28,996 bases of DNA from Candidatus Rifleibacterium amylolyticum (lineage in GTDB: Bacteria; Muiribacteriota; Ozemobacteria; Ozemobacterales; Ozemobacteraceae): assembly GCA_009917695.1 (NCBI GenBank), contig JAACJG010000011.1, forward strand, positions 1 through 28,996, read 5' to 3'. Below the pieces are notes generated by a model. It was not told the DNA's origin and did not search any database. It was given only the letters and a program-made list of their open reading frames with translations. Made by a program: the position numbers and the translations under genes. Shown here piece after piece: positions 3,366 through 20,671 of this stretch. Positions within the stretch are counted from its first letter, which is position 1. Every line of letters starts with the position of its first letter.

Positions 3366-3376
3366 ACATCCATTAA

Positions 3377-3410
3377 ATCTCCAATACAGAAATGTATTGG
3401 AGATTTTTTA
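3377..3410. terminator. bidirectional rho-independent terminator between convergent glnN and adenylate cyclase genes
   Basis: Perfect 12-bp stem ATCTCCAATACA / TGTATTGGAGAT with a GAAA loop, followed by TTTTTTA on the + strand. The stop codon of the - strand cyclase (3408-3410) lies inside the T-tract. Confidence 0.7.
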
Positions 3411-5012
3411 ATTTCCATCGTCCTTCAGTAATGCATGGAGTTTATACAGATTTTGAGTGGCAGCGCCTTTTATTTCTACATTTGGCATCATGCTGAATTT
3501 AAAAGAATCCAAAGGCAATTGATTAAACGTCGTTTCATCAACGATTATTTCGTTACTCTCTGCCAACTTTTCGATGCGCGCTGCCAGATTAACTGTCTCG
3601 CCGATCGCAGTGTATTCCATGCGGTTTTTTGAGCCAAAATTTCCGACAACCGCCTCACCGGTTGAAATTGAAATACTCAGGCCGAGGGAACATCCGGCCG
3701 GGAGTTTAACGAGCGTCATGAATCGGGAAAACTCCTCCTGCAACCTGAACGCAGTATAGACTGAGCGCAAGGTGTCATCATGTCCGGTTTTGGGTGCGCC
3801 AAACAGAACGAGAATCCCGTCACCCATGAATTTGTCGATATGTCCGCCATTCTTCTCAATGAGAGTACAGGCCCGCTCAAACCAGGTGTTAAGTAAGGTC
3901 ACCACTCCTTCTATCGGAATTGTGCCGCTCAAGCGGGTAAAGCCTCGTAGGTCTGCCATCATTACTGAAATTTTGGCCTTTTTGCCGCCCAGAGCCATAT
4001 TCGCTTGATTATCGATTATGTTTCTGGCGACATCTCCTGACACATATTTGCCCAGAGCACTTTCCACTTTTTCGCTTTTTTGCACGGCCTTATCAAGAAG
4101 TTGACGGCAGATAAGGTTGGTTTGGCAGTTTTCGAATGCTGATCCAAGGACATACGCGAAAGCGGCAAAATGGGCAGGATCAAGATATTTGCGATTCTCT
4201 TCCTTCTGTCGAAAAACTACCACCAGACCGGTAACAATCTTATCCGCACTCAACGGCATGGCGGCCAGAGCATCAATTGACGACTCAGGAATCATGTTTT
4301 TGAGTGTGCGAAGGCTTGTTTTGCCGCCAATCAGGCTCAACATGCCCTTGCCGGGATCGTAACTATGCTTGCGCCAGAAATCAGGTTGAACCAGTATCGG
4401 CGGAAAATTTCTGTCAGGCTCGGTTCCCGGTTTAAAGCTGGGAATCAATAGATTTTTTTCATGGTCGGCCAGATATATTATCGCTTTATCTGCCTTGAAA
4501 AACTCCTCAAGCACATGGTAAGCCTGAGACAATACTCTGTTCTTGTCTCTGAGACAGCCGAGAAGGCTGAAATACAGGAGTTTTTGCATATACAGCTCAT
4601 CTGCTTCCCTTAAATCGGCTTTAAGACTTTTAACCCGGGATTCAGATATATAATTCTGAGCGAGTTGCCAGTAGAAGTAGAAAAAAATGGCAGAAATAAT
4701 TACGTGTCCGAGCATGCCTCCAAAAAACAGGCCGGGCGACTTGAAATGCACTGCGAAAATCAGCAGTAATAGAAGATTTGGTATCTGTACGGCTGCGGCA
4801 ATTATAAAGAAATGCTCGATCTCTTTAAGACAGAGTATGAGCAGCATTATGGTCAGAAGCAGATTTCTGGTGCCGTATGCCAGGGTTTGCGAAGAAATGA
4901 ACCAGGCATCGGTCAACGCAAGCAGTATTGCCACTCCAGCGAAGATTCCGAAATGCAAAGATCGCACAAGACTTTTAATCGAGTCAGTAAGCTTTCCCAT
5001 TGGTCTGGTCAC
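3408..5012 (-). CDS. membrane-anchored class III adenylate/guanylate cyclase (multi-TM N-terminus, GAF-like middle region, CHD catalytic domain)
   Basis: The N-terminal ~150 aa are hydrophobic (several TM helices). The C-terminus carries cyclase homology domain motifs: VMMADLRGFTRLS, DKFMGDGILVLFGAP, EYTAIGETVNLAARIE. GTG start. Confidence 0.8.
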   Translation of the reverse strand: MTRPMGKLTDSIKSLVRSLHFGIFAGVAILLALTDAWFISSQTLAYGTRNLLLTIMLLILCLKEIEHFFIIAAAVQIPNLLLLLIFAVHFKSPGLFFGGMLGHVIISAIFFYFYWQLAQNYISESRVKSLKADLREADELYMQKLLYFSLLGCLRDKNRVLSQAYHVLEEFFKADKAIIYLADHEKNLLIPSFKPGTEPDRNFPPILVQPDFWRKHSYDPGKGMLSLIGGKTSLRTLKNMIPESSIDALAAMPLSADKIVTGLVVVFRQKEENRKYLDPAHFAAFAYVLGSAFENCQTNLICRQLLDKAVQKSEKVESALGKYVSGDVARNIIDNQANMALGGKKAKISVMMADLRGFTRLSGTIPIEGVVTLLNTWFERACTLIEKNGGHIDKFMGDGILVLFGAPKTGHDDTLRSVYTAFRLQEEFSRFMTLVKLPAGCSLGLSISISTGEAVVGNFGSKNRMEYTAIGETVNLAARIEKLAESNEIIVDETTFNQLPLDSFKFSMMPNVEIKGAATQNLYKLHALLKDDGN

Positions 5013-5037
5013 CAGAGTATTTCTTGAGTATCAGCTG

Positions 5038-5068
5038 ATTATATACATCATTTTAACCAGATTGGCAA
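5038..5068 (-). promoter_or_regulatory. candidate sigma70 promoter for adenylate cyclase gene (TTGCCA-N17-TATATAAT)
   Basis: On the - strand: TTGCCA (reverse complement of 5063-5068), a 17-nt spacer, and TATATAAT (reverse complement of 5038-5045), about 25 nt upstream of the GTG start at 5012. Confidence 0.45.
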
Positions 5069-5203
5069 TTCGAATTCGCTTTTGAACAGGTTTCAAGCGG
5101 GATGTCGTGTTTATAGCAGATTTCTAACTAATCTTGAGACTATCTAACCGGCTCAAATTTTGTTATCATCGATGATCAGCCAATACTAACAGGAATCACA
5201 ATT

Positions 5204-5764
5204 ATGGATATGACTATACTGCTGACCGGACTGGCAGTGTTTATGGCAAGGATTGTCGATGTTTCAGTCGGCACCATACGCATTATCAGTATTGTTAATG
5301 GTCGCATCAAGACTGCTTTCGTGCTTGGTTTCATCGAAGTCAGTATCTGGTTGCTGGTGATCTCAACGGTGTTGGGCAAAATTAATGAAAGTCCATTTAT
5401 CGCGATATTTTATGCTCTCGGTTACGCTTCAGGTAACGTTGTCGGGATTCTTATCGAAAAACGTATTTCTATGGGAAACTCGATGCTGAGAATCATCAGC
5501 CTTGAGAAAGGTATTGAGCTGGCGACGGAATTCAGGCGTCTTGGTTTTCAGGTAATGACTTTTGACGGCATTGAATCTGATCGCGCGGTCAAAGAAATCG
5601 AAATTCCCTGTCGTCGCAAAGATATCGATCAGCTTGTGGCAATCGCAAGAAAAATAGAGCCAGATGCATTTTTTGTGACCGCCAATATCGGAGTCGGGCC
5701 AAAGATAAGGCATCCGGTAATGCAGCCGCCAAGCGGCTGGCGCGCTATTTTTAAGCGCAAGTAG
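5204..5764 (+). CDS. DUF2179 / UPF0316 family small membrane protein
   Basis: 186 aa with an N-terminal membrane helix (ILLTGLAVFMARIVDVSVGTIRIISIVNGR) and a second hydrophobic segment. The soluble C-terminal domain resembles UPF0316 proteins such as B. subtilis YebE-like. Confidence 0.6.
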   Translation: MDMTILLTGLAVFMARIVDVSVGTIRIISIVNGRIKTAFVLGFIEVSIWLLVISTVLGKINESPFIAIFYALGYASGNVVGILIEKRISMGNSMLRIISLEKGIELATEFRRLGFQVMTFDGIESDRAVKEIEIPCRRKDIDQLVAIARKIEPDAFFVTANIGVGPKIRHPVMQPPSGWRAIFKRK

Positions 5765-5770
5765 TATTTG

Positions 5771-6418
5771 TCAGCGAACACCTGATTTAGCCAGTAATTG
5801 CTTCAGATCTTCGATTATTGCCCGGTAAGGGCGGAGTATTTTATGCCCGGCTGCTGTCTGCCCGGTATTCTGGCTTTTGATGAGCAAGTCGAGATCGGCT
5901 ATTTCTCTGGTTAACCATTCTCTTATTGCACGCAGTGTCTGCGCTGACAACTCCTCTATCAATAATTTTCTCGCCAGCTGATATTCAGCAAAGTGTCTGG
6001 CGACAAAACTTAAACCAAGGCGATAATAGTCTTCTTCGAGCAATTGTGGGTGCCCGGCAGCAAGCGCAGTCAGCTCATACTGCAGCGCGACTGCTCTCAT
6101 AAAATCCTCATGTTTCTGCCCGGTCAGCTCTATACCTGATTCAAGTCGCCAGATCGTGCTTTCGACAACACCTGCGAGATGGTCGAGGTCTTTCTGCACA
6201 GACGCACAAACTGGAGCGATGGCAAGTATCATTAATAGCACGCATGCAATCAGACTGGTGAATAGTGAATTGTTGAAGAAATCAGGCTTTCCATGAGATT
6301 GCTTTGCCGCTACGCTCCTCGCAATGACTGATTTAAGCAATATTGAGTCCTCTTCTGATGCAGAGCTTGAGGTGTCGATAAGAATTGCCGGCTTTACCAT
6401 ATGGGCGTGGCTGCTCAT
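5771..6418 (-). CDS. hypothetical single-pass membrane protein, translationally coupled (ATGA overlap) to cca
   Basis: 215 aa with one predicted TM helix (SLFTSLIACVLLMILAIAPVCA) and no recognisable domain. Its start overlaps the cca stop (6415-6418). Confidence 0.5.
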   Translation of the reverse strand: MSSHAHMVKPAILIDTSSSASEEDSILLKSVIARSVAAKQSHGKPDFFNNSLFTSLIACVLLMILAIAPVCASVQKDLDHLAGVVESTIWRLESGIELTGQKHEDFMRAVALQYELTALAAGHPQLLEEDYYRLGLSFVARHFAEYQLARKLLIEELSAQTLRAIREWLTREIADLDLLIKSQNTGQTAAGHKILRPYRAIIEDLKQLLAKSGVR

Positions 6419-7902
6419 TGTTCAAGCAGTTTTGCGGCTCTGGCCAGGGCTTCTTCACGCGTGCTGATTTCGCCTAAAAACTGTGCCTCTTCGAGGGCTT
6501 CGAGGATTCTTCTGAATTCAGGGCCTGGTTTGAGTTTGAAATGTTTAATCAGGTCGTTACCGTTGAGAAAAGGGGCTAGTTTTGGCCTTTTGAGCTGTTC
6601 GTAAAATGCCTGCATGATTTTCATTATGCCGATTTCGAATTCTGCCATTTCCTCGGTGCTGAGAGTGCCCTGGGCGGAGCAGCGGTCAGCCAGCGAGAGC
6701 AGGGCTATGCCCAGGCCGTCCCGGCCGGTTTCTGAGAAAAAACGAAACAGACGCTTATCAGTAATACCCTGCTGCAGCATGACGCCAGGGCGCATGTGAT
6801 TTTTTACCAGAAGCTGCAGATACTGGCTTTCGTTGACCGAGAGCCTGAGGTTTTCGCTGATTTCTCGGGTTATGCGCACGCCTTCCATTTCATGACCATG
6901 AAAAATCACGCGGCCAGAATCTGCATCAACTCTGCGACAATCAGGTTTTCCGAGATCATGCAGCAGGCTGCTAAGCTTGAGAAGCTGGCGGTAGGTGCGG
7001 TTTCCAGAAAGATTCTCGTCAAGATATCTGATGAAGGCCGGCCACCATTCGGGCCGATCATCTGCGACAAGCAGCAGTTTTTCAAGGTTTTCGAGAGTCA
7101 GCAGGCTGTGTTCAAATACATCGAGGTGGTGCCACTCGTTCTGCTCGACGCCAGCACAGGCGGCGAGCTGTGGAAAAATCACCGGTAAAATACCGGTTTC
7201 GTGCATAATTCTGATCCAGTGCGTGCTGTTATCGACCTGGAAAACTTTGAAAAGTTCGTCGCGTATGCGCTCACCAGAAACGCCTTTGAGCAGCGGTGCC
7301 TGGTCAACTATCATTTTATACAGCTGTTCAGAAAAGCTTGCATTGAAAAGCGCAGAGAATCTGAATGCCCGCATCAGTCGCAGCGGATCATCGGTAAACA
7401 GATGGTCTGAGCAGGGTATGATCAGACCCTGCTTCAGGTGCTCACAGCCACAAAGTGGATCGTATAATTCTAATTCACTCCCGGCTTTGCCCCCTTGTCT
7501 CGTTTGTTGTGGCTTATCTTCAGGCATTGTGAGCCGGGCAGCGATGGCGTTAATGGTAAAGTCGCGTGCGCGCAGATCAGCATCTATGTCTTCAGCCCTG
7601 AACATTGAGATGTCAAAGGTATAATGTTGATCATCAAAAGATCTTACCACCCTGACGACCTTGCGCTCTTCGTCGAGTACTACGAAACCGGCGCCAGTTT
7701 TTCGCGCGTATTCACGCGCGGCCGGTATCGGGTTAAAGCTGGTGGCGAGATCAAGATCTGGCAGGGCAGTCTGTCCCTGCAACAGGTCGCGTATACTGCC
7801 GCCCACCAGCCATACCTCATGGTCTGCTGCCGGGCGCAGAAAGTACAGAATCTCCCGCAGCATCATGGTTTCGATGTGCGGGAGATTTACTGTAATTGTC
7901 AT
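6415..7902 (-). CDS. cca: CCA-adding tRNA nucleotidyltransferase / poly(A) polymerase family protein with HD domain
   Basis: Class II nucleotidyltransferase head motif (LVGGSIRDLLQG...DLDLATS), RxD motifs (FTINAIA) and a C-terminal HD-domain-like region (HDLGK). Sits 8 nt downstream of gcvPB. Confidence 0.8.
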   Translation of the reverse strand: MTITVNLPHIETMMLREILYFLRPAADHEVWLVGGSIRDLLQGQTALPDLDLATSFNPIPAAREYARKTGAGFVVLDEERKVVRVVRSFDDQHYTFDISMFRAEDIDADLRARDFTINAIAARLTMPEDKPQQTRQGGKAGSELELYDPLCGCEHLKQGLIIPCSDHLFTDDPLRLMRAFRFSALFNASFSEQLYKMIVDQAPLLKGVSGERIRDELFKVFQVDNSTHWIRIMHETGILPVIFPQLAACAGVEQNEWHHLDVFEHSLLTLENLEKLLLVADDRPEWWPAFIRYLDENLSGNRTYRQLLKLSSLLHDLGKPDCRRVDADSGRVIFHGHEMEGVRITREISENLRLSVNESQYLQLLVKNHMRPGVMLQQGITDKRLFRFFSETGRDGLGIALLSLADRCSAQGTLSTEEMAEFEIGIMKIMQAFYEQLKRPKLAPFLNGNDLIKHFKLKPGPEFRRILEALEEAQFLGEISTREEALARAAKLLEQ

Positions 7903-7910
7903 CAGCCAGG

Positions 7911-9362
7911 TTATTCGGGTTTCTGGAAGTAGTTTATATCGGGTTTGCGGGCAGCCGTAGCTTCGTCAAGGCGGCGCACCGGCGTTTTTGTCGGCGCATT
8001 CTTGAGGTTGTCAGGGTTTTCGGCAGCTTCGCGCGCAATCATTTCCATGGCTTCGCAGAAACAGTCAAGCGTGCCCTTGCTTTCGGTTTCGGTTGGTTCG
8101 ATCATCATCGATTCTTCGACGATCATCGGGAAATACACGGTAGGTGCGTGAAATCCGAAATCAAGCAGGCGCTTGGCAACGTCGAGGGTCTTGACGCCGT
8201 GTCTGGCGAGACCTTTTCCCGACAATACGAATTCATGCTTGCAGAAGCGATCGTAAGGCAGATCGAAGGTCTTTTTGAGGCGCTGCATCATGTAGTTAGC
8301 GTTAAGAACCGCATAGGCAGAGACATTTTTGAGACCTTCGCGGCCGTTGACCAGAATGTAGGCAAAGGCGCGCACGAGCACGAGGAAATTGCCGAGCGAT
8401 CCGAGTACCGGGCCGACCGACTCGCGGCATTTGGTCTGCAGGCGGTATTTTTTGCCGTCGAACTGAATGCGCGGGTTGGGCAGAAAGGCCTCGAGATGCT
8501 TCTTGACGCCGACCGGGCCGGCGCCGGGGCCGCCGCCGCCGTGTGGAGTTGAGAAGGTCTTGTGCAGATTGAGATGCACGATGTCGAATCCCATGTCGCC
8601 CGGGCGGGTCCAGCCCATGATGGCATTGAGATTGGCGCCGTCATAGTAGACGAGGCCGTCGACCGAATGCACCAGGTGAGCGAGTTCACCGATATTTTCG
8701 TCGAACAGGCCGAGTGTGTTGGGGTTGGTGATCATCAGACCGGCGATATCGGGGCCGAGTTTCGATTTGAGGTCTTCGATATCGACGCCGCCGCGCGGGT
8801 CGGACTTGATGTTTACGACTTCGTAGCCGACCATCGAGCACGACGCCGGGTTGGTGCCGTGGCCGCTGTCAGGAATCATGATTTTGGTCTTGTGATTGCC
8901 TTTTTTGCGGTGATAAGCCTTCATGATCAGCAGGCCGGTGAGTTCGCCATGGGCGCCGGCAGCTGGCTGCAGCGTGATGGCATCCATGCCGGTAATTTCT
9001 GCAAGCGACTCTTCAAGGGTCTTGAGCATCTGCAGGGCGCCCTGCACACTCTCTTCAGGCTGCTGCGGGTGCAGGTTGGCAAATCCCGGCAAACGCGCCA
9101 TGTTTTCGTTAACCTTGGGGTTATACTTCATGGTGCAGGAACCGAGCGGGTAAAAGCCGATATCGACGCTGTGATTCAGTCGCGAAAGGCGTGTGAAATG
9201 CCGAACTACATCGAGTTCAGACATCGACGGCAGCGGCAGTTCTTCACGCAGAAAGCGGGCCGGAATATGGTCAGCTGGATCGACTTCAGGAACATCGAGC
9301 GCCGGCAGCGTAAAGCCGCGGCAGCCATCTTTCGACAGGTCAAAAATCAAGGGTTCAGCCAT
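7911..9362 (-). CDS. gcvPB: glycine dehydrogenase (decarboxylating) subunit 2, C-terminal half of the P-protein
   Basis: A 483-aa PLP-fold protein of typical GcvPB length and motifs ([18 protein letters not shown]). Overlaps gcvPA by 8 nt. Confidence 0.9.
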
Positions 9363-10701
9363 TGATAAACCCTCCTAACAGGTTGCAGTAGTTGTCGATT
9401 TCGTCTTTGCTGCGTTTTTCGGTAACAGCTACCAGCACGCAGTCTTTGAGATTCGCAAACCAGTTGTCGAGCGGAATGCCGGCAAAAACGCCATGTTTGG
9501 CCATTTTGCCGAGTACTTTGCGGGCGTTGGGGATCTTAACGACCAGTTCATGGAAGAAGCTGCCGGTAAACGGGAAGGTAACGCCATCAACCTTTGCGAG
9601 TTCGCGTTTGAGGTAATGCGCTTTCTGGAAACACTGGCCGGCTACTTCGCGAATGCCTTCGCGCCCCATCAGGCTCAAATAAATGGTTGCGTTGAGAGCC
9701 ATCAGCGCCTGGTTCGAGCAGATGTTGCTGCTCGCCTTTTCACGTCTGATATGCTGTTCGCGGGCCTGAAGAGTGAGCACAAAGCCGATTTTACCATCGA
9801 TATCGGTAGTTTTGCCGACGATACGACCGGGCATTCGGCGCAGCAACGCTTTTTTCGAAGCAAGAAAGCCGACGTAGGGGCCGCCAAAGCTGAGCGGAAT
9901 CCCGAGTGGTTGCCCTTCGCCGCAAACGATGTCGGCGCCAAGCTTCCCGGGGGTTTCAAGCAGGCCGAGAGCAATCGGGTTGGCGACGACTATTGCAAGA
10001 GCACCCGCTTCATGAGCAACTTCCGCAATTTTTTCGATATCTTCGATGCAGCCGAGGAAGTTCGGATACTGCATGACAACTGCTGCAACCTGGTTGTTCA
10101 GCATTTCATGCACTTTGGCCGGATCGACGACGCCGTCTTCGAACGGCACGCTGACAATTTCAGCTCCAAGCGGAGTGTTGAGCGAATTTATGACGCGGCG
10201 GTATTCCGGATTAACCGTCTGCAACACGAGAACCCGGTTGCGGCGGGTCTGTGCTGTCGCCATGTTGATGGCTTCGACAGTTGCGGTTGCGCCCTCATAC
10301 ATTGAAGCATTGGCCTGATCCATGCCGGTCAGCCCGCAGATCAGACTCTGAAATTCGTAGATACACTGGAGAGTGCCCTGCGAAACTTCTGGCTGATAGG
10401 GAGTGTAGGCCGTAAAAAAGTCGCCGCGCAGCAGCAGATGGTCGATTGCCGCCGGGATAATGTGATCGTAGGCTCCACCGCCAAGAAAACAGACCTTGTC
10501 ATCGACGGTCTCGTTGCTCTGTGAAAGGCGGGTCAGCTTTCTCGTCATTTCGGGCTCACTCATTCCTTCTGGGATGTTGAGGTCGCCCTGAAGCCTTAGT
10601 TCAGGCGGAATTTCGGCAAAAAGATCGTCGATGGTCTTTACGCCGATGGCCCCGAGCATTTCCTGCACTTCGGCAGGAGTTGTGGGGATATAGTTAGCCA
10701 T
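9355..10701 (-). CDS. gcvPA: glycine dehydrogenase (decarboxylating) subunit 1, N-terminal half of the P-protein
   Basis: 448 aa starting [25 protein letters not shown], the typical GcvPA N-terminus. Positioned between gcvH and gcvPB. Confidence 0.9.
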
Positions 10702-10719
10702 AAGACAGCTCCTGTCGGT

Positions 10720-11079
10720 TTATTCGCAGATTTTTTTGTAGTCAGCTTCTGAAAGCAGTGTGTCGTATTCCTTGGAATCAGCGACCTTGATTTTAACTAT
10801 CCAGCCGGCATCCATCGGAGACTCGTTGACCAGAGCCGGGTTGCCTTCGAGTTCGCTGTTGGTTTCAACGACTTCGCCGCTGACCGGGGCATACATGTCA
10901 GAAACGGTCTTAACCGATTCAATGGTGCCAAAGGTCTTGCCAATAGTCAGTTTGCTGCCGTTTGCCGGAAGCTCGACAAAAACCACATCGCCAAGCTGGT
11001 GGGCGGCATATTCAGTAATGCCTACGGTTACCACGTTGCCATCGAGTTTTGCCCATTCATGTTCTTTTGTGAATCTCAT
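10720..11079 (-). CDS. gcvH: glycine cleavage system H protein (lipoyl carrier)
   Basis: 119 aa with the lipoyl-lysine motif ESVKTVSDMYAPVSGEVVETN. SD AGGAG upstream. Confidence 0.9.
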   Translation of the reverse strand: MRFTKEHEWAKLDGNVVTVGITEYAAHQLGDVVFVELPANGSKLTIGKTFGTIESVKTVSDMYAPVSGEVVETNSELEGNPALVNESPMDAGWIVKIKVADSKEYDTLLSEADYKKICE

Positions 11080-11093
11080 CTTGTAATCTCCTG

Positions 11094-12332
11094 TTAAATT
11101 GAGTAAAAGGGGAATTTTTTGCAGATTTCGTTTACTTTGCCCTTTACGGTTGCCAGATTGGCTTCGTCTTCGGGGGCAGTCAGTGCCTGATCCATCAGGT
11201 CCGCGATCTGGCTCATTTCATTGGGGGTCATGCCACGGGTAGTAACAGCCGGCGTGCCTACGCGCAGGCCTGAAGTGACAAAGGGCGACTGCGGGTCGTT
11301 AGGAATTGTATTTTTGTTAACTGTGATTCCGGCGTGATCAAGAGCTTTTTCAGCGAGTTTGCCAGTAACGTTCTTGTTGCGAACATCGATCAGCATCAGG
11401 TGGTTGTCGGTACCGCCAGATACGAGTCGGAAACCTTTGGCTGTAAGAGCTTTGGCAAGAGCCTGCGCGTTATCTATCACTTTTTTCTGGTATTCCTTGA
11501 ATTCGGGCTCAAGAGCTTCTTTAAAAGCGACGGCCTTGGCTGCGATTACATGCATCAGCGGGCCGCCCTGCAGACCAGGGAAAATCGCCTTATCGATCGC
11601 CTTAGCCCATTTCTCTTTGCAGAGAACAAGGCCGCCACGGGGGCCGCGCAGGGTTTTATGGGTTGTCGAGGTTACGAAATCAGCATAGGGTATCGGCGAT
11701 GGGTGCAGACCGGCAGCGACGAGGCCGGCGATGTGAGCCATATCGACACACATGACAGCATCGATTTCGTCGCAGACTTTGCGGATTCTTTCGAAATCGA
11801 TGATACGCGGGTAAGCAGAGGCGCCGACCATGATCATTTTGGCTTTATTTTCTACTGCCAGTTTGTGCAGCATGTTGTAATCAAGAGTTTCAGTGTCATC
11901 GGTAACGCCGTAAGGAACGACATTGTAGAGCAGGCCGCTGAAATTAACCGGGCTGCCGTGAGTGAGATGGCCGCCGTTCTGCAGGTTCATGCCAAGAAAG
12001 GTGTCGCCTGGCTTGAGAACGACCTGATATACGGCCATATTAGCCTGGCTGCCAGAATGTGGCTGTACGTTGGCATGTTCGGCGCCAAAAAGCTTTTTAA
12101 CGCGATCGCGAGCCAGGTTTTCGGCTTCATCGACGACTTCACAGCCGCCATAATAACGTTTCGCCGGGTAACCTTCGGCGTATTTGTTGGTGAGAACCGA
12201 GCCGAGAGCTTCGAGAACAGCTTCTGATACGAAGTTTTCTGAAGCGATAAGCTCGATCTGGCTCATCTGGCGATTTTTTTCGCGCCCGATAATTTCAAAA
12301 ATCTCGTTGTCGAATTCTTTAAGACTGCGCAT
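11094..12332 (-). CDS. glyA: serine hydroxymethyltransferase
   Basis: 412 aa with the SHMT signatures LIASENFVS and [12 protein letters not shown] (PLP-lysine). Confidence 0.92.
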
Positions 12333-12334
12333 TA

Positions 12335-13423
12335 TTAACTCCTTGCCCTGGTGTAAAATGGTGTTTCTATGACTGTAGCGGGATAATTCTTGCCGCGAAT
12401 TTCAATGTCGAAAACAGTGCCGATGGCGCTGAGCGCTGGCGGTACGTAGCCGAGTCCGATGTTTTTCTTGAGAGTCGGGGCCATGGTGCCAGAAGTCACT
12501 TCGCCAACGGTTTTGCCGTCTTTTACGATCGGGTAGCCGTGACGGGCAGCCGGGCCTTTACCCAGTTCAAAGCCGACGAGAGTCTTGCTGACGCCCTGTT
12601 CTTTCTGCTTTTTGAGCACATCGCTGCCGGTAAACGCGCCTTTGTTGAACTTTACGGTCCAGTTCAGATTAGCTTCGATCGGAGTTGTATTGTCACTGAT
12701 ATCGTTGCCATAGAGCATCAGACGTGCTTCGAGCCTGAGCGTGTCGCGGGCGCCAAGCCCTATGGGTTTGATTCCTGCCTCTTTGCCGGCTTCCATCAGA
12801 GCGTTCCAGAGCTTTTCTGAATGCTCGGCCGGGTAGTAGAGTTCGAAGCCTTCTTCGCCGGTATAGCCGGTGCGACTGATGATGCATTCTACGTCGAGAA
12901 CCTTGCCTGAGGTGAACCAGTAGAATTTGATGGGTTTGAGGCGCTGGCGGGTAAGCTTTTGCAGAATGGCTTCAGCCTGTGGCCCTTGAATCGCTATCAA
13001 GCCGGTGTTGTTCGACTGGTTGTCGAATTTAACATCGCCTTCGAGTTGGCTTTTGATCCAGTTGTAGTCTTTTTCGATATTGCTGGCGTTGACGACGAGC
13101 AGAAACTTTTCTGCGTTCCAGCGGTAGACGAGCAGGTCATCGACGATACTGCCATCGGGTCGGCACATCGGAGTATAAGCTATCTGGCGGTCAGAGAGAG
13201 CTTCGGCATCCTGTGTGACAATTTTTTGAACATTTTTGAGCGCGTCAGGCCCGGTCAGCCAGAATTCGCCCATGTGGAAAAGATCGAAAAGCCCGGCCGC
13301 CTCGCGCACGGCATTGTGCTCTTCGATGATCGAAGTATACTGCACCGGCATATACCAGCCCGAAAAATCGATCATTCGGGCGCCAAGTTTTTCATGCACT
13401 GCACACAACGGGGTCTTGTTCAT
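12335..13423 (-). CDS. gcvT: aminomethyltransferase, glycine cleavage system T protein
   Basis: 362 aa of the GcvT family (folate-binding, YTGEEGFEL motif). SD AGGAG. Confidence 0.88.
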
Positions 13424-13442
13424 TCTTATCTCCTTTGAGTTC

Positions 13443-15104
13443 TCATAAACCAGTTATATTGCCGTTTTCATCGACATCTATATGCTCGGCTGAAGGGGTT
13501 GCCGGCAGTCCCGGCATGGTCATGATCTCGCCAGCAATGGCGACGACAAAGCCGGCGCCGGCGCTCAGTCTGGCTTCGCGTATGGTAACTTCGAAACCGC
13601 TCGGCCGACCAAGCTTGTTAACAGTATCAGAGAGCGATGACTGGGTTTTGGCGATACATACCGGAACCTTGCGATAACCCAGTTTCTCGAACATTTCGAG
13701 GCTGTCTTTGGCTTTTTTCAGAATGGTTACGCTGCCGGCTCCGTAGCAGCAGCGCGCAATGACGTTAATTTTTTCAATAAGCGGCATTTCAAGCGGGTAG
13801 AGACAGGCGAATTCGTTTTTCTGACTGGCGATGACCTTTTCGATTTCTTTAGCCAGTGCCAGTCCGCCTTCCGGGCCTTTTCCATAAATATCAGCTTCGA
13901 CCGCAGCAACGCCGAGCTTTCGCGCCGCTTCGACTACCCAGGCAATCTCAGCATCGGTATCGCTGGCAAAGCGGTTAACCGAGACCACGCAGGGCACTCC
14001 GTAATGGCCGATGTTTTCGATATGTTTGGCGAGATTGTCGAAACCGGCTTTGACTGCCTGCAGATTCTCAGCATCAAGCTGATTTTTGGGAACACCGCCG
14101 TGCATCTTGAGAGCCCTTACCGTGGCGACTATTACTGCTGCGGCCGGTTTTAGTCCGCCAACCCGGCATTTGATATCGAAGAATTTTTCGGCGCCAAGAT
14201 CGGTGGCGAAGCCTGCTTCAGTAATCACAACATCAGCAAGTTTGAGGGCAAGCTTGGTGGCAACCAGACTGTTGCAGCCATGCGCGATATTGGCGAACGG
14301 GCCGCCATGAATCAAAACCGGCGTGGAATAGCGAGTCTGCACCAGGTTTGGCTTCATCGCCTCTTTGAGAATGGCGCACATTGCACCCTGAGCCTTGAAA
14401 TCACGGGCATAGATCGGTTCGCCCTTGCGGTTGAACGAGACAATCATGTTGCCCAGTCGCTCTCGCAGCTCGTTCAGGTCTTCAGAGAGGCAAAGGGCAG
14501 CCATGACTTCAGAAGCGGCAGTGATATCGAAGCCGGTCTCGCGCGGAACTCCATTTGCCGGGCCGCCGAGGCCAGATACGATACAACGCAGACTGCGGTC
14601 GTTCATGTCCATGACGCGACGGAATGGTGTTGACTTGGGGTCGATATCAAGCTGGTTGCCATGCTGAATGTGGTTGGCTACAAGTGCGGTTAGCAAATTG
14701 TGAGCAGAAGTTACCGCGTGAATGTCACCGGTAAAATGCAGATTGATTTCGGCCATCGGCTCGATCTGACTCTTACCGCCGCCGGTGGCGCCACCTTTGA
14801 CACCAAATACCGGGCCCATTGAGGGCTCGCGCAGACACAGCATGGTCCTGCGGCCGAGCGCTCGAAACGAGTCAGCCAGGCCGATGCAGGTCGTGGTTTT
14901 GCCTTCACCGGCAGGTGTCGGTGTCATTGCTGACACCAGAATCAGTTTGCCATCAGGATTACCCGCCAGCCGCTGTCGCGCCTTTGCCGATACCTTAGCC
15001 TTCATGCGGCCATAGGGTTCAATTTCGTCATGCAGAAGGCCAATTTCAAGACCGACGTCTTCAATCGGTCTAAGCCCTTCTTTAAGTTGCCTGTATTCTG
15101 TCAA
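13443..15104 (-). CDS. fhs: formate--tetrahydrofolate ligase (formyl-THF synthetase)
   Basis: 553 aa with the TPTPAGEGKTTT P-loop signature of FTHFS. TTG start preceded by a GAGGTGAGG SD. Confidence 0.9.
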   Translation of the reverse strand: MTEYRQLKEGLRPIEDVGLEIGLLHDEIEPYGRMKAKVSAKARQRLAGNPDGKLILVSAMTPTPAGEGKTTTCIGLADSFRALGRRTMLCLREPSMGPVFGVKGGATGGGKSQIEPMAEINLHFTGDIHAVTSAHNLLTALVANHIQHGNQLDIDPKSTPFRRVMDMNDRSLRCIVSGLGGPANGVPRETGFDITAASEVMAALCLSEDLNELRERLGNMIVSFNRKGEPIYARDFKAQGAMCAILKEAMKPNLVQTRYSTPVLIHGGPFANIAHGCNSLVATKLALKLADVVITEAGFATDLGAEKFFDIKCRVGGLKPAAAVIVATVRALKMHGGVPKNQLDAENLQAVKAGFDNLAKHIENIGHYGVPCVVSVNRFASDTDAEIAWVVEAARKLGVAAVEADIYGKGPEGGLALAKEIEKVIASQKNEFACLYPLEMPLIEKINVIARCCYGAGSVTILKKAKDSLEMFEKLGYRKVPVCIAKTQSSLSDTVNKLGRPSGFEVTIREARLSAGAGFVVAIAGEIMTMPGLPATPSAEHIDVDENGNITGL

Positions 15105-15116
15105 AGCCTCACCTCA

Positions 15117-16289
15117 TCACTTGTAATTGAGAAAATATTCCATGGTGGCGCTGATGCCGGCGCCAACCTGTTTGAGATAACCAGATTTTTTGAGCGTCAT
15201 CTCGAGCAGGCCGACAGTACCGAGAATATCGCGCTCGCCAATCGCGCCTATTGTGGTAATGCGCAGAAGCTTGGTTGCGAACTGTTCCTGTCCGCCTGCA
15301 ATAAGCACACCGTAGCGGTTGCGCAGTTCACTGACTATATCTTTTGGCGCGACGCCCTCCGGTGAGTAGAAAACTGTCAGCACATTGGAGGTTGCATCTT
15401 CGTCTGTAAAAAGGCGCAGATTCATTGCCTTGAGTGCGGCACGCAGACCGCCGGCCAGTTTATCATAATGTTTGAAGCAGTTTTCGATGCCGATGCGGTC
15501 GATCTTACGCAGTGCTTCGAGCAGCGAAAACATGACGTTGATGGCGGGTGTCCATGGATATGCCGGAATCGCGCCTTCCTGGTCTTTTTTGTAAATTTTC
15601 AGATCGAAATAATAGCCGTGGCACTTGACCTGTTCAACCTTGGCCCAGGCCTTTTCTGAGAGAGCGACCATGCCGACACCTGGAGGTGCCAGAAAGCCCT
15701 TTTGCGAGGCTGACACGGCGACATCGACATGCCATTCATCCATTTTAAAGGGGAGGGCTCCGATACCCGAAACGCCGTCGGTGATGAAAATCTTGCCTTT
15801 GTCTTTGAGAAACTTGCCAATAGCTTCGATATCGTTGCGAATACCGGTTGAGGTTTCGTTAAAAGTGACGGTAACGCCTGAAATCTCGGGGTTCTTTTCG
15901 AGAGCGGCAGCTATCTGCTCGACAGTTACACGTTTGCCGTCTTCACAGGCGAGCACGACTGTTTTTAGTCTGAATGCTTCGCAGATCCTGGTGAAGCGCA
16001 CGCCGAATACGCCAGTTTGAATGGTCAATACCGTTTCGCCTTCATTAAAAAGATTGGCGATGGCGGTTTCCATGGCACCGGTGCCAGATGAGGTTGTCAA
16101 ATAAAGCTTTTGCGTCGTGCCAAAGAATTTTTTGAGCAGAGTTACACATTCAGTGTATACCGGCGCAAAATCATTGGTGCGGTGGTGGGTAAGAGCGCGG
16201 GCTCCTGCCAGAGTTACTTCTGCGTCGAGGTGAACAGGGCCAGGGGTCATCAACAGGGTATCAATTTCCATGACAGTTCTCCATTCCAT
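15117..16289 (-). CDS. class V (AGXT-family) aminotransferase, serine--glyoxylate/serine--pyruvate or phosphoserine aminotransferase-like
   Basis: A PLP-lysine motif SASQKGF and AGXT-family similarity throughout. The likely true start is Met7 (16271), which has a better SD. Confidence 0.75.
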   Translation of the reverse strand: MEWRTVMEIDTLLMTPGPVHLDAEVTLAGARALTHHRTNDFAPVYTECVTLLKKFFGTTQKLYLTTSSGTGAMETAIANLFNEGETVLTIQTGVFGVRFTRICEAFRLKTVVLACEDGKRVTVEQIAAALEKNPEISGVTVTFNETSTGIRNDIEAIGKFLKDKGKIFITDGVSGIGALPFKMDEWHVDVAVSASQKGFLAPPGVGMVALSEKAWAKVEQVKCHGYYFDLKIYKKDQEGAIPAYPWTPAINVMFSLLEALRKIDRIGIENCFKHYDKLAGGLRAALKAMNLRLFTDEDATSNVLTVFYSPEGVAPKDIVSELRNRYGVLIAGGQEQFATKLLRITTIGAIGERDILGTVGLLEMTLKKSGYLKQVGAGISATMEYFLNYK

Positions 16290-16303
16290 TCCTTGTGTTT
16301 ATC

Positions 16304-17170
16304 TTATGATAATTTTTCTTTTGCTTTTAAAGTGTTGGCCAGCAGCATGGCGATGGTCATCGGCCCGACTCCGCCCGGCACCGGCGTGATATAACCGGCC
16401 CGCTGCGCTGCCGGTTCAAATTCTACGTCACCAACCAGCCGGTAACCTTTTGCTGACGCCGGGTCATCGACCGAGTTGATGCCGACATCGATAACGACAC
16501 TGCCAGGCTTAACCCATTCGCCTTTGACGAATTCCGGCTTGCCGAGTCCGGCAACGATAATGTCGGCGCCACTGATCAGGGCTGGCAGGTCGCGGGTGCG
16601 CGAATGGGCGACAGTCACCGTAGCGTTGGCTTTGGTCAGCAGCGCCGCCATCGGCTTGCCGACTATGTTACTGCGCCCGATTACGAGGGCAGTTTTCCCC
16701 TCAATCGGAACTTTGTAGCGCTTGAGCATTTCCATGACGCCCAGTGGTGTGCAGGGAACGAAGGTATCGACGCCGAGATGCAGATAACCGACATTCACCG
16801 GATGAAAACCATCGACGTCTTTGCGCGGATCAATTGTCTGCAAAGCCTCAGATTCGTTGAGATGAGAGGGCAGGGGAAGCTGCAGCAGAATGCCGTGAAT
16901 TTGCGGATCCTGGTTGAGCCGACGTATCTCGTCGAGCAGTCCAGCCTGCGTCGTCTGGCCATCGAGAGTGATTTCACGCGAATAGATACCGGCCTCTTCA
17001 CATGCCTTTTTTTTGGAGTTGACATAGACGCGCGACGCCTTGTTGTCGCCAACGATTATGACGGCGAGTCCGGGTGGTTTCTGCCCGGCGCTGGTCATTG
17101 TCTTGACCGATGCGGCGACTTCGGCCCGGATCTGCTGAGATAGCTGTTTCCCGTCGAGGATTGTGGTCAC
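16304..17170 (-). CDS. folD: bifunctional 5,10-methylene-THF dehydrogenase / 5,10-methenyl-THF cyclohydrolase
   Basis: A 288-aa FolD-family protein. GTG start with an AGGAG SD. Confidence 0.9.
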   Translation of the reverse strand: MTTILDGKQLSQQIRAEVAASVKTMTSAGQKPPGLAVIIVGDNKASRVYVNSKKKACEEAGIYSREITLDGQTTQAGLLDEIRRLNQDPQIHGILLQLPLPSHLNESEALQTIDPRKDVDGFHPVNVGYLHLGVDTFVPCTPLGVMEMLKRYKVPIEGKTALVIGRSNIVGKPMAALLTKANATVTVAHSRTRDLPALISGADIIVAGLGKPEFVKGEWVKPGSVVIDVGINSVDDPASAKGYRLVGDVEFEPAAQRAGYITPVPGGVGPMTIAMLLANTLKAKEKLS

Positions 17171-17200
17171 GGCAGACTCCTGTTAAATGATTTTCAGCCG

Positions 17201-17229
17201 AGTATAACGCTGTAAAAGTAAATAGGCAA
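17201..17229 (-). promoter_or_regulatory. candidate sigma70 promoter of folD–gcv operon (TTGCCT-N17-TATACT)
   Basis: The - strand reads TTGCCT, a 17-nt spacer, and TATACT, about 30 nt upstream of the folD GTG. Confidence 0.4.
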
Positions 17230-17455
17230 CCCTTATCTAAGAAATTCGCCCGAAGAAATACTCTATAGAGGCAAATCGCATGAAACTCGGTCGAAAGACA
17301 CAAACCGCCGATTCTCTCATCGCAAAGAAACAGGATTCCCTGTCATGTTTTGAAAGCTATGGGTTTATTAGAGACAGAGACAAAAAGTCTGGATATGGAA
17401 ATGGTTTGCTGATAGGATATGGCGATAGATCGATCGGACAGGGAGAGTGATTTAA

Positions 17456-18448
17456 GTGGAATCATGTGAGAAAACCCCGGTTTCGGGGAGAGAAATTATC
17501 GATATGGCCGGTCGCAAGGTGATCTTACCTGAAACCATCAATTCGGTTTTTGCCGGGTCATTTTATGGTTACACCATGCTTGCCTCGCTGGCGCCTGAGA
17601 TGATAGCCGCAACGCCAATGCCGGCGCGTGAATGCGATAAAAGGTATCTGCACCCGCACCTGCATGATCTGCCGGTAATCGAAAAAATTACCGAAGTAGA
17701 TGCACTGGCAAAGGTTAAACCCGACGTTATAGTAGTCTGGGCGGACAAGGAGCAGCCTTTTCATAAAAAGTCAGAGGCTGTTTGCGATTCTCTGGGTATT
17801 CCATTCGTGTATGCAATAGTTGGCAATCTTGGTGATGTCGAAGATTTTCCGGCAGCTTACGAGTTTCTTGGCAAACTGTTGGGGTGCGAAGCCCGTGCTG
17901 CACGCCTCGCCGAATATTGCCGGGAAACGCTCGCCGAGGTCACCACGGTGGTCGATCGCATACCTGAGCGCCTTAGACCTGGTGTTTATTATGCTGAATG
18001 TGAAAACGGGCTGGCGACTGAATTCGACGATTCGTTGCACGCTCATCTGTTTCGCCTGATGGGCGATGTCAATGTCCATCGAGGGCACATTGCCGAGCAT
18101 AAAGGTCTCGAACCGGTTACTTTCGAGCAGATAGAAGCTTATAACCCTGACGTGATAATTGCCTGGAGCCGTTCATTCGTAAAAAACGTCATGCTGGATC
18201 CTCGCTGGAACGAGATCAGAGCCGTTCGCAACCATAGGGTTTATCCGATTCCGAACGTTCCGTTCAACTGGTTCGACCGGCCGCCCTGCTTCATGCGGAT
18301 AATCGGTCTCAAGTGGCTTGCTCATCTGCTTTATCCAAATGATTACGCGGTCGACCTCGTCAAGGAGACCCAACAATTCTATGCATTGTATCTCGACAAG
18401 GAAATCTCAGCCGAAGAAGCCGGCAGAATCATCGCCCAGGAAACATGA
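17456..18448 (+). CDS. periplasmic-binding-protein fold (Peripla_BP_2, BtuF/FhuD-like cluster A) protein without signal peptide (predicted cytoplasmic)
   Basis: 330 aa with the typical N-terminus GREIIDMAGRKVILPETINSVFAG of corrinoid/siderophore-type substrate-binding proteins. The N-terminus is not hydrophobic, and an in-frame stop sits 3 nt upstream of the GTG start. The stop overlaps the next gene (ATGA). Confidence 0.65.
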   Translation: MESCEKTPVSGREIIDMAGRKVILPETINSVFAGSFYGYTMLASLAPEMIAATPMPARECDKRYLHPHLHDLPVIEKITEVDALAKVKPDVIVVWADKEQPFHKKSEAVCDSLGIPFVYAIVGNLGDVEDFPAAYEFLGKLLGCEARAARLAEYCRETLAEVTTVVDRIPERLRPGVYYAECENGLATEFDDSLHAHLFRLMGDVNVHRGHIAEHKGLEPVTFEQIEAYNPDVIIAWSRSFVKNVMLDPRWNEIRAVRNHRVYPIPNVPFNWFDRPPCFMRIIGLKWLAHLLYPNDYAVDLVKETQQFYALYLDKEISAEEAGRIIAQET

Positions 18449-19317
18449 TTGTCAGTGTCAGTCGGCGAACGGATATACCGGCTTTTTATCATGAGTGGTT
18501 TTACAACCGCCTGACGACAGGCTTTGTGCTGACAAGAAACCCGATGAATCCGGCGCAGATCCGGCGGGTTGAGTTGAACCCGGAAGAGGTTGACTGTTTT
18601 GTGTTCTGGAGCAAGAACCCGCAACCGTTTATGCAGAACTTCAGTCGGCTGAATGCTTATAAATACTACTTTCAGTTCACGCTGACGCCTTACGATCGTG
18701 ACCTTGAGCCCGGGTTGCCAGATAAAAGAGAGCTAATTGGGACATTTCGCGCGCTGTCAACTGAGATAGGCGCAGAAAAGGTTGTCTGGCGGTATGATCC
18801 GATAATCTTTACTTCGCGATACGATCTGCAATACCATGCCGGGCATTTTGCCTGGCTATGTGAGCAACTGAGCGGCTTTACTGAACGTTGTATCATCAGC
18901 TTTTATGACCACTACAATTTTGTCAGGCGCAATCTGAACGGCATCGAAATTTTGCCGGTTGACAGTGCCAGAATACGCGAGATTGCACTAATATTTGCCG
19001 AAACAGCCGGCAAAAATGGTTTGACGGTCGAAAGCTGCGCCGAAAGTGAAAACCTGGAAGAATTTGGTATCGCGCATGGGCGTTGCATCGATGACCGTTT
19101 GATCAACCGCATCTGCGGGCGCGATTTACATTTAAAAAGAGACCATGGCCAGCGCCCGTTGTGCGGCTGCGTTAAAAGCGTCGATATTGGCGCCTATTCA
19201 ACCTGCCTTCACGGCTGCCGCTATTGCTATGCGGCCAGGCAACGGCTTACTGCTGCACAGATATCGTCAAGACACGACCCCACAGCACCATTTCTGGTTG
19301 GCAATTCTACTAAATAG
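18445..19317 (+). CDS. DUF1848 family protein with C-terminal CX3CX2C cysteine cluster (putative Fe-S / radical-SAM-like)
   Basis: 290 aa with the characteristic N-terminus MIVSVSRRTDIPAFYHEWFYNRL and the C-terminal cluster CGC...CLHGCRYCYA (C-X3-C-X2-C). Translationally coupled to the upstream PBP-fold gene. Confidence 0.6.
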   Translation: MIVSVSRRTDIPAFYHEWFYNRLTTGFVLTRNPMNPAQIRRVELNPEEVDCFVFWSKNPQPFMQNFSRLNAYKYYFQFTLTPYDRDLEPGLPDKRELIGTFRALSTEIGAEKVVWRYDPIIFTSRYDLQYHAGHFAWLCEQLSGFTERCIISFYDHYNFVRRNLNGIEILPVDSARIREIALIFAETAGKNGLTVESCAESENLEEFGIAHGRCIDDRLINRICGRDLHLKRDHGQRPLCGCVKSVDIGAYSTCLHGCRYCYAARQRLTAAQISSRHDPTAPFLVGNSTK

Positions 19318-19319
19318 GT

Positions 19320-20633
19320 CTATCGGTTTGCGGGTGGGGTGACGGTGAAGACGACCTGTGACTGTAATCCCCATTTTTCGACACTCTGTTTGAGCACGTG
19401 GTATTTGCGGGCGTAATACCAGTCGCCGTCGTTGATGACCTTGTTCTGCAACATGGTTTGAATGTTTTTCAGCAGAGGCACCATGGCGAGGCGCTCGGCC
19501 GGGGCCATTTGATCAATCTCTTTCAGTAGAATCTCAAAGAGTTTGAATTTTTCGTTGGTAAACTCGCTGGAAACATTCTTTTCGACTCTGCCTTGAGCAT
19601 CATTCAGAGACTGACGGGCTACTTCATCGCCGGGGTTTTTGACCAACATGTGATGAGCGTCGAGCATGCGCTTTAAATTGCGTTTCAGTGGGAGTTTGGC
19701 GGTAATCTGGTAGACGATGATTTTTGCCACAACCGTCAGAATCTGGCTGCCCATATAGCCGCCAATAACGCTGCCGACACCGGGCGCGAGAACCGAACCA
19801 ACTGCCGCGCCAAGCGAAGCGCCGGTAACACTGACCAGACTTATTGATGCGCTTCTGAAAATCTGCAGAGCGAGAAAACTCAGAAGAGTTCGATCTTTCA
19901 TCGTCTGCTTGAAGATGTTTTTCAGACCCTGATTTTGTGCAGAAGCCTTAATCATGTCGTTAACCAGCCGGGTAAAGGCGACGGCCGAAAAGCTGCGAAA
20001 GGTTTCTGAGATTGCTTTCGACAGCACACCGATATTAAGCTGAGCAAGGAATTCGGTAAGCATGTCGAATGCCGGCGAGAGAGCGCCAGATGCCGCCAGG
20101 TGCGGCGTCTTTTTGAGCAGTTCGTAAGCCATGCGGTCGAGCGAAACAACTACCGAGCAGTTGTAGTTAAAGCTAAGCCCTGAACGGCTTTGCCTGATTT
20201 CAGAAATATAAAGATCGACCGAAATCTCGCTGTTGCTGGTGATTATGTAGCTGTCTTTATCTATGTTCCATGGCAGTTTGCCTTGAAAAAGCGCATTTCC
20301 ACTGAAAGACACAAAGTAGCGTCTGATTCTGGTGTCATAAAAAGAACTGTGCACCTGAACCGACAGGTTGTCTGTCTTATCGATTGCCAGCGCTAGTTTG
20401 CGTACCGTCTTGTCAAGCGCAGCAGCAGTTTTGACTACACTCTTTTCGACAGCTTCCGAGAATTTAACTCGAATCTTCTCGGTCGGCCGCATTTCAGCAG
20501 CATTGACAAAAGGTGCTGCAAGAAGGCTAAAACAGAGTATCAGGCATAGAAAGAGCCTGTTGCCAGGCTTTTTAAGACAAGATGTTATATTCATGCAATA
20601 CCTCTTTTCAAGATCCGCAGAATGCTGCGACAC
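19320..20633 (-). CDS. secreted hypothetical protein with internal glycine-zipper segment
   Basis: 437 aa with a signal peptide after Met14 (MNITSCLKKPGNRLFLCLILCFSLLAAPFVNA) and a glycine-zipper segment GASLGAAVGSVLAPGVGSVIGGYMGS. It has no recognisable enzyme domain and lies 38 nt downstream of the C11 peptidase gene. Confidence 0.5.
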   Translation of the reverse strand: MSQHSADLEKRYCMNITSCLKKPGNRLFLCLILCFSLLAAPFVNAAEMRPTEKIRVKFSEAVEKSVVKTAAALDKTVRKLALAIDKTDNLSVQVHSSFYDTRIRRYFVSFSGNALFQGKLPWNIDKDSYIITSNSEISVDLYISEIRQSRSGLSFNYNCSVVVSLDRMAYELLKKTPHLAASGALSPAFDMLTEFLAQLNIGVLSKAISETFRSFSAVAFTRLVNDMIKASAQNQGLKNIFKQTMKDRTLLSFLALQIFRSASISLVSVTGASLGAAVGSVLAPGVGSVIGGYMGSQILTVVAKIIVYQITAKLPLKRNLKRMLDAHHMLVKNPGDEVARQSLNDAQGRVEKNVSSEFTNEKFKLFEILLKEIDQMAPAERLAMVPLLKNIQTMLQNKVINDGDWYYARKYHVLKQSVEKWGLQSQVVFTVTPPANR

Positions 20634-20671
20634 ACTAATTCAGCCGGGAAGAGAAGCGGGCCTGACGGGGT

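Follow-up and report, generated by a model that had tools for sequence, protein, structure and literature searches.

A conserved Riflebacteria operon joining folD, an AGXT-family aminotransferase and glycine cleavage genes: a probable housekeeping unit of serine, glycine and one-carbon metabolism

A compact operon that joins genes of folate-dependent one-carbon (C1) metabolism to those of a glycine cleavage system (GCS) and serine hydroxymethyltransferase (SHMT) was examined in contig JAACJG010000011.1 of 'Candidatus Rifleibacterium amylolyticum' (assembly GCA_009917695.1), the whole analysed stretch of which (28,996 nt, or 29 kb) is referred to hereafter as the window. Ten co-oriented open reading frames (ORFs) run on the minus strand from position 17170 down to 5771, behind a promoter that is conserved among Riflebacteria, and the gene order recurs in approximately 20 Riflebacteria loci. 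The reading favoured here, with moderate confidence, is that of a constitutive housekeeping operon of the Riflebacteria that provides serine, glycine and folate-bound C1 units and converts them into one another, with formate exchange. No account of this operon was found in the literature on Riflebacteria with glycine or formate. The novelty lies in the description of the operon, of its promoter and three variants in an uncultured phylum, and of what its aminotransferase probably is; the enzymes and the pathway logic are all already known, and it is their arrangement that is novel.

From 5′ to 3′, the ORFs encode FolD, a class-V aminotransferase, Fhs, GcvT, GlyA, GcvH, GcvPA, GcvPB, a CCA-adding-enzyme-like protein and a 215-aa orphan product (Table 1). 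The initial annotation, which was made from the letters of the window alone, had described eight enzyme genes followed by a cca gene and a small coupled gene, all on the minus strand, and all ten ORFs were recovered where it had placed them. The tight head-to-tail packing that it reported, with gaps of at most 20 nt or overlaps, agrees with successive junction lengths of 14, 12, 19, 2, 14, 18, -8, 8 and -4 nt. Every gene of the operon save the last two is provided with a Shine-Dalgarno site. Gene families were called from the curated cutoffs of NCBIfam/TIGR models and from Pfam. Seven ORFs, those encoding FolD, Fhs, GcvT, GlyA, GcvH, GcvPA and GcvPB, scored above the curated cutoffs, with Pfam in agreement, and the lipoyl-lysine motif of GcvH (ESVK) is intact. 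The locus thereby has the make-up of a glycine cleavage operon, with co-oriented gcvT, gcvH and split gcvPA and gcvPB, and its Fhs and FolD supply the formate-tetrahydrofolate (THF) ligase and the methylene-THF dehydrogenase/cyclohydrolase that are looked for in the reductive glycine pathway.

The two distal genes are less readily classified. The best model for the first of these is TIGR02692 (CCA tRNA nucleotidyltransferase), at 160 bits, and because this lies under the equivalog cutoff of 438.8 the gene is named CCA-enzyme-like only; it begins 8 nt past the gcvPB stop codon. The 215-aa ORF matched no Pfam or NCBIfam family, and a recognisable counterpart occurs in none but the two closest relatives (L001, 44%; L004, 66%), which makes it a fast-evolving, lineage-specific addition. 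Horizontal acquisition of fhs was considered also, and is not indicated, because its GC and GC3 are not anomalous and its closest homologues, between 100% and ∼60% identity, are from Riflebacteria, with Firmicutes following only after that.

A consensus scan located a sigma-70-type promoter upstream of folD. When the 300 nt upstream of folD were aligned for nine Riflebacteria species (alignment A1), GGTTGCCT, CGGCGTTATACTC and the Shine-Dalgarno sequence CAGGAG proved to be invariant, and the remaining upstream intergenic DNA could not be aligned and is not conserved among the same species. Invariant -35, -10 and CAGGAG elements amid unconserved DNA therefore represent the phylogenetic footprint of a real promoter, which substantiates the earlier proposal of a single candidate promoter. 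Judging from the position of these elements, transcription would start so as to leave a leader of ∼22 nt, and the whole operon is predicted to be co-transcribed from this one conserved promoter. Within the coding regions only weak consensus matches to internal terminators or promoters were encountered, in numbers near the shuffled expectation. The reported lack of a glycine riboswitch was upheld. Indeed, no Rfam family reached its gathering score in the window and no riboswitch was detected in seven related loci, and a search of positions 17100-17500 up to E=10 returned three chance-level matches only, all on the plus strand. A leader of ∼22 nt is moreover too short for a riboswitch, and a glycine riboswitch or other leader RNA was thus ruled out.

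Conservation of the operon was examined by scanning a genome collection with the aminotransferase as query, which identified 21 operon-bearing loci, synteny in these being established by tblastn and one extra look-up. Variant A, with the order folD-aminotransferase-fhs-gcvT-glyA-gcvH-gcvPA-gcvPB-cca, is found in the window and in L001, L004, L005, L007 and L055, in truncated form in L003, L009 and L011, and in L048, where it is cut after fhs. Variant B (L012, L013, L019 and L020) has the same order without fhs. Variant C, folD-aminotransferase-gcvT-glyA-cca, lacks both fhs and gcvH/P and occurs in rumen and gut metagenome-assembled genomes (MAGs; L014, L015, L016, L017 and L018); the contig of L015 starts inside the operon, leaving folD unseen, and L016 has no adjacent cca. 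The three variants therefore define an invariant core of folD, the aminotransferase, gcvT and glyA, usually followed by cca, a cca-like gene being present at the 3′ end of the operon in 14 related loci. Conversely, fhs is part of the operon in variant A only, and both fhs and gcvH/PA/PB are dispensable from it in some lineages. Since the order recurs across the phylum, and since GCS genes lie near fhs in just one of 80 unrelated loci (described below), the clustering cannot be attributed to chance. A co-oriented threonine synthase gene (thrC), which is the ancestral upstream neighbour of the operon, accompanies it in many loci, and in L007-L009, L014 and L055 the two are immediately next to each other. 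An insertion of ∼5 kb splits thrC from folD in the window, L001 and L004; it holds a C11 peptidase, a 437-aa ORF without family, a DUF1848 protein and a periplasmic binding protein, the latter being absent in L001.

Two further observations concern variant C. In these rumen and gut lineages the T protein is kept beside SHMT without H and P partners nearby, as no gcvH, gcvPA or gcvPB was found in the operon or flanks of L014 (6141-12463), L015 (951-7360), L017 (3425-9129) or L018 (3468-9338); either the partners of this GcvT are encoded elsewhere or the protein has some other folate-dependent role. Additionally, L017 (JAZUDR010000105.1) and L018 (JAZRWI010000039.1) are labelled 'Candidatus Avigastranaerophilus sp.' (Melainabacteria), yet carry the Riflebacteria-type variant C, with operon proteins that are 56-77% identical to those of the window. 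This points to mislabelled or mis-binned MAGs, or else to transfer between phyla.

The aminotransferase, being part of the invariant core, was examined more closely. It is 100% identical to the public gene GQF41_3348, the call for which begins 6 codons downstream of the ORF start. The ATG at 16271 (384 aa) is the likely true start, having a suitably spaced GGAG and matching NCBI gene call P0001, and would extend the gap to folD from 14 to 32 nt. No NCBIfam equivalog was reached by the protein. It nonetheless has the class-V fold and the lysine of the pyridoxal phosphate (PLP) motif, as SASQK, together with a C-terminal Arg, and the nearest solved structures are PH1308 (2dr1) and the Arabidopsis serine-glyoxylate aminotransferase SGAT (6pk1). 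All homologues of more than 55% identity are on Riflebacteria-type contigs, after which identity drops to 43% or less. Five outgroup loci were examined, from Marinitoga (L050), Omnitrophica (L051/L052), Actinomycetota (L053), a Bacillota MAG (L021) and a Peptococcaceae MAG (L024). These nearest bacterial homologues from outside the phylum are 37-43% identical, and in all five the gene is followed within ∼15-35 nt by one encoding a 2-hydroxyacid dehydrogenase. In four of the five (L051/L052, L053, L021 and L024) the latter is a full-length SerA, recognised in L051/L052 and L053 by Pfam 2-Hacid_dh, PGDH_inter and ACT domains, and in L021 and L024 by full-length tblastn matches to outgroup SerA.

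Since its nearest outside relatives sit directly before serA, the Riflebacteria enzyme is probably, by presumed orthology, an AGXT-type phosphoserine aminotransferase of serine synthesis. We take the Synechocystis protein sll1559 to be a member of the AGXT family. It is a documented case of a phosphoserine transaminase other than SerC, termed 'SerC2' (PMC9997740). With SerC2 and the serA-paired class-V aminotransferases the Riflebacteria protein shares the class-V fold and the SxSQK PLP motif, and the serA-paired group is its best-matching outgroup subfamily. However, whereas genes of that subfamily directly precede serA, the Riflebacteria gene has parted from serA and lies between folD and fhs or gcvT. 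Indeed, neither the window nor any Riflebacteria locus has a serA within 10 kb, and hence none shows such a pairing, and the extra ORFs that occupy gaps in L016 and L015, inspected as possible hidden copies of serA, either have no family or are unrelated. The initial annotation had the enzyme connecting serine either to hydroxypyruvate and glycerate or to phosphoserine; the serA-linked relatives speak for the phosphoserine option, which it had named second, and the hydroxypyruvate link was not borne out. On this basis the existing label of 'alanine-glyoxylate aminotransferase family protein' is reassigned to that of a probable phosphoserine aminotransferase.

The arrangement was next compared with known gene clusters. 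Among 80 metagenome loci from outside the phylum that carry an fhs of 53-58% identity (median length 11.6 kb), folD was nearby in 18 and GCS genes in one clear case, L128. This unrelated metagenome contig (ERZ773005) carries nine genes, gcvT-gcvH-gcvPA-gcvPB-lplA-lpd-fhs-fchA-folD, at 2194-12402, and is a more self-contained glycine-cleavage and formate set than the operon of the window. Bacillota have gcvT-gcvPA-gcvPB operons under glycine riboswitch control; these resemble the Riflebacteria operon in the split P protein and in being led, as far as the GCS genes are concerned, by gcvT, but differ in their riboswitch. Peptoclostridium (Eubacterium) acidaminophilum has gcvT-gcvH-gcvPA-gcvPB-fhs in one cluster with no lpd or lplA nearby, and Thermacetogenium phaeum has gcvT-H-PA-PB-lpd-lplA, with a threonine synthase gene beside glyA1 (PMC12674515). 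The joining of fhs to GCS genes in a region without lpd or lplA is thus common to P. acidaminophilum and the Riflebacteria, although in the latter fhs precedes gcvT, glyA is inserted between gcvT and gcvH, and folD, the AGXT-family aminotransferase and cca are added. L128 and T. phaeum likewise have GCS genes and C1-THF enzymes in one co-oriented run, but include an L protein and lipoate ligase and no glyA or aminotransferase, which is the reverse of the Riflebacteria operon. Together, these cases indicate that the Riflebacteria arrangement is rare, yet has precedent.

Comparison with organisms of the reductive glycine pathway is complicated by the scattering of their genes. The pathway is defined as formate dehydrogenase (FDH), Fhs, FolD and the GCS including Lpd, followed by SHMT with serine deaminase or by glycine reductase (PMC7547702; bioRxiv 10.1101/2020.12.28.424620). 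Desulfovibrio desulfuricans G11, 'Ca. Phosphitivorax anaerolimi' Phox-21 and Clostridium drakei share Fhs, FolD, GcvT/H/PA/PB and GlyA with the operon. To compare synteny with a reductive glycine cluster of D. desulfuricans G11, as was suggested at the outset, is moot, because the G11 genes are dispersed over at least five loci (GCS at 0325-0328, glycine reductase at 1441-1448, formate-THF ligase at 3068, SHMT at 2276 and serine deaminase at 1577; PMC7547702). In C. drakei glyA lies far from the glycine synthase genes, and gcvH and lpdA are in the Wood-Ljungdahl pathway cluster. In contrast to G11 and C. drakei, whose genes are spread over several loci, the window has them in one operon; the middle of the pathway is present and joined, whereas both of its ends (FDH and a serine or glycine outlet) and the L protein are unlinked.

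The missing partners were sought in the window and around related loci. No L protein (lpdA), FDH, glycine reductase or serine dehydratase is encoded among the ORFs of the window, so the reported lack of lpdA from the cluster stands. FDH, grd and sdaA families were likewise not found among the flanking ORFs scanned in related loci, hydroxypyruvate reductase and glycerate kinase were found neither there nor in the window, and the sole PALP enzyme nearby passes the threonine synthase model. No homologue of lpd, lplA or fchA was detected by tblastn in 361 kb of Riflebacteria operon neighbourhoods, the Lpd of L128 serving as the lpd query. The L protein may be encoded elsewhere or replaced, as has been discussed for P. 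acidaminophilum (PMC12674515).

As regards lifestyle, the MAG analysed here appears to be Ch46, a Riflebacteria genome of 5.39 Mb from a borehole into an aquifer 2.8 km deep in Western Siberia, and its group is described as anaerobic and presumably heterotrophic and fermentative (PMC7509429). The searched literature yielded no expression or labelling data for this uncultured organism.

Because every step is reversible, the readings that may be placed on the operon are not mutually exclusive. The initial annotation had proposed that the enzyme set equals the core of the reductive glycine pathway and, when reversed, a route from glycine to formate, and the gene content agrees; that it constitutes a special pathway module of either kind is favoured by none of the present results. 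In the oxidative direction, GlyA and GcvTHP would turn imported glycine or serine into methylene-THF, FolD would take this on to 10-formyl-THF, and Fhs would release formate with the gain of one ATP by substrate-level phosphorylation, as in the oxidative arm of glycine fermentation in P. acidaminophilum and purine-fermenting clostridia, and the formate would pass to a partner, to formate dehydrogenase or to a hydrogenase. This catabolic role is considered unlikely, but has some evidence in its favour. The P. acidaminophilum cluster likewise has no lpd or lplA nearby (PMC12674515), L128 combines GCS, fhs, fchA and folD, and the presence of fhs and gcvH/P in subsurface, groundwater and digester lineages, and their absence from gut operons, is what would be expected of an accessory trait. 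However, there is no sign of glycine-responsive control, neither riboswitch nor adjacent regulator; the window and the scanned flanks of related loci show no glycine reductase, thioredoxin or amino-acid transporter genes next to the operon; the operon also holds cca and a probable biosynthetic aminotransferase, with thrC as ancestral neighbour; and its core persists where fhs and gcvH/P do not.

The assimilatory alternative is less likely still. Here formate, or CO2 by way of an FDH encoded elsewhere, would be taken through Fhs and FolD to a reversed GCS, which with CO2 and NH3 would yield glycine and then, through GlyA, serine; the outlet would be a deaminase, or the aminotransferase by way of hydroxypyruvate and glycerate. 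All of the core steps are in the operon (PMC7547702; bioRxiv 10.1101/2020.12.28.424620), these genes have led MAG studies to infer the pathway, as for Atribacterota (PMC11227167), in one MAG a serine-glyoxylate transaminase has been suggested to stand in for serine deaminase (bioRxiv 10.1101/2020.12.28.424620), and the deep aquifer habitat is one of H2- and formate-based metabolism (PMC7509429). The presence of the genes is not diagnostic, however, because the complete set for the serine route is found in 203 genomes (PMC7547702). FDH, the L protein, serine deaminase, glycine reductase, hydroxypyruvate reductase and glycerate kinase are all absent from the window and scanned flanks, the nearest relatives of the aminotransferase are linked to serA and not to glycerate genes, and several Riflebacteria lineages have the operon without fhs. 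Furthermore, the group to which the MAG belongs is described as fermentative and heterotrophic (PMC7509429) and, unlike the organisms known for the pathway, this Riflebacteria source has no evidence of autotrophy.

Several observations favour the housekeeping reading over these. Host-associated lineages retain the folD-aminotransferase-gcvT-glyA core although their operons lack fhs and gcvH/P, and the genes next to it, thrC and cca, serve biosynthesis or housekeeping. The aminotransferase probably makes phosphoserine, the promoter is followed by no regulatory leader, genes for the ends of either pathway are not linked, and the lifestyle of the group is fermentative. According to this reading, the aminotransferase would convert 3-phosphohydroxypyruvate to phosphoserine, and thence serine would be formed, with SerA and SerB encoded elsewhere. 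GlyA would convert serine to glycine and 5,10-methylene-THF, and GcvT/H/PA/PB would break down surplus glycine, giving CO2 and NH3 as well as a second methylene-THF, with the protein that reoxidises the lipoamide again encoded elsewhere. FolD would oxidise methylene-THF to 10-formyl-THF for purines and formylmethionyl-tRNA, and Fhs would link the C1 pool to free formate, either by the ATP-costing salvage of fermentative or environmental formate or by its ATP-yielding release when C1 units are in excess. The tRNA CCA-enzyme-like gene at the 3′ end would be carried along by translational coupling.

Certain points weigh against this account. A full P-protein and Fhs exceed the minimal biosynthetic set, and the reversibility of the reactions means that the same genes could serve for the synthesis of glycine or for its oxidation with energy gain. 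That fhs is so rarely joined to GCS genes (one case among 80 unrelated fhs loci) might point to a dedicated pathway. The aminotransferase, moreover, is just 37-43% identical to the serA-linked enzymes and has no serA within 10 kb, and for that reason 3-phosphohydroxypyruvate is only its probable substrate. The initial annotation had itself named housekeeping C1 metabolism as the case that would undo its proposal; the phylum-wide core, the association with thrC and cca and the serA-linked relatives of the aminotransferase all point there, but the catabolic and assimilatory readings each retain a small share of the probability.

Elsewhere in the window the flanking genes are unrelated to the operon: they encode GS-III, an adenylate cyclase, DUF5698, periplasmic binding and DUF1848 proteins, a C11 peptidase, threonine synthase, a subtilase, a cyclic nucleotide (cNMP)-binding protein and a K+ channel. 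The adenylate/guanylate cyclase, the stand-alone cNMP-binding protein and the RCK-domain K+ channel (Table 1) hint at cyclic-nucleotide signalling genes around the operon. The plus-strand ORF near the start of the window has no HisKA or other dimerisation domain within it, and may belong to a longer hybrid histidine kinase as its C-terminal part, the gene being interrupted or starting before the window.

Table 1. Positions of the operon genes, the promoter region and neighbouring features in the window
Feature	Position	Strand	Evidence
Sigma-70-type promoter	17201..17229	-	TTGCCT, 17-nt spacer, TATACT (consensus scan)
Short 5′ leader and Shine-Dalgarno CAGGAG	17171..17200	-	∼22 nt after predicted start site
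folD (FolD)	16304-17170	-	NF008058 375.6 bits (cutoff 355); Pfam THF_DHG_CYH, THF_DHG_CYH_C
Class-V (AGXT-family) aminotransferase	15117-16289	-	Pfam Aminotran_5 114 bits; NCBIfam best BhcA 260 (cutoff 650)
fhs, formate--tetrahydrofolate ligase	13443-15104	-	TTG start; NF010030 825.6 bits (cutoff 652); Pfam FTHFS
gcvT, aminomethyltransferase (T protein)	12335-13423	-	TIGR00528 420 bits (cutoff 236)
glyA, serine hydroxymethyltransferase	11094-12332	-	NF000586 654 bits (cutoff 335); Pfam SHMT
gcvH, lipoyl carrier H protein	10720-11079	-	TIGR00527 148 bits (cutoff 116); ESVK
gcvPA, glycine dehydrogenase subunit 1	9355-10701	-	NF001696 638 bits (cutoff 364)
gcvPB, glycine dehydrogenase subunit 2	7911-9362	-	NF003346 747 bits (cutoff 441); 8-nt overlap with gcvPA
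CCA-adding-enzyme-like class II nucleotidyltransferase with HD domain	6415-7902	-	Pfam PolyA_pol, PolyA_pol_RNAbd, HD, tRNA_NucTran2_2
215-aa orphan ORF	5771-6418	-	ATGA-coupled to cca-like gene; one hydrophobic segment
thrC, threonine synthase	22049-23275	-	TIGR00260 207 bits (cutoff 167)
Inserted stretch between folD and thrC	17456-21895		
Adenylate/guanylate cyclase	3408-5012	-	
Stand-alone cNMP-binding protein	24944-25459	-	
RCK-domain K+ channel	25487-26692	-	
Possible hybrid histidine kinase fragment	189-1082	+	HATPase_c and receiver domains

It is improbable, though conceivable, that no natural 'formate-to-serine' cassette known is more compact than the Riflebacteria operon, and that it is used in the deep subsurface to assimilate formate or CO2, the AGXT-family aminotransferase leading from serine to hydroxypyruvate and glycerate without a deaminase. 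Were this so, a single promoter would drive the formate-activation, glycine-synthase and SHMT steps that synthetic biologists assemble as separate modules, the operon would offer a natural, portable template for the engineering of formate assimilation, and C1 assimilation by a fermentative subsurface phylum would be indicated. If the housekeeping reading is correct, the value of the finding lies in annotation: in a phylum-wide map of an operon in an uncultured lineage, in the new name for its aminotransferase, and in a caution that the full gene complement of the reductive glycine pathway, even within one operon, is no evidence for that pathway.

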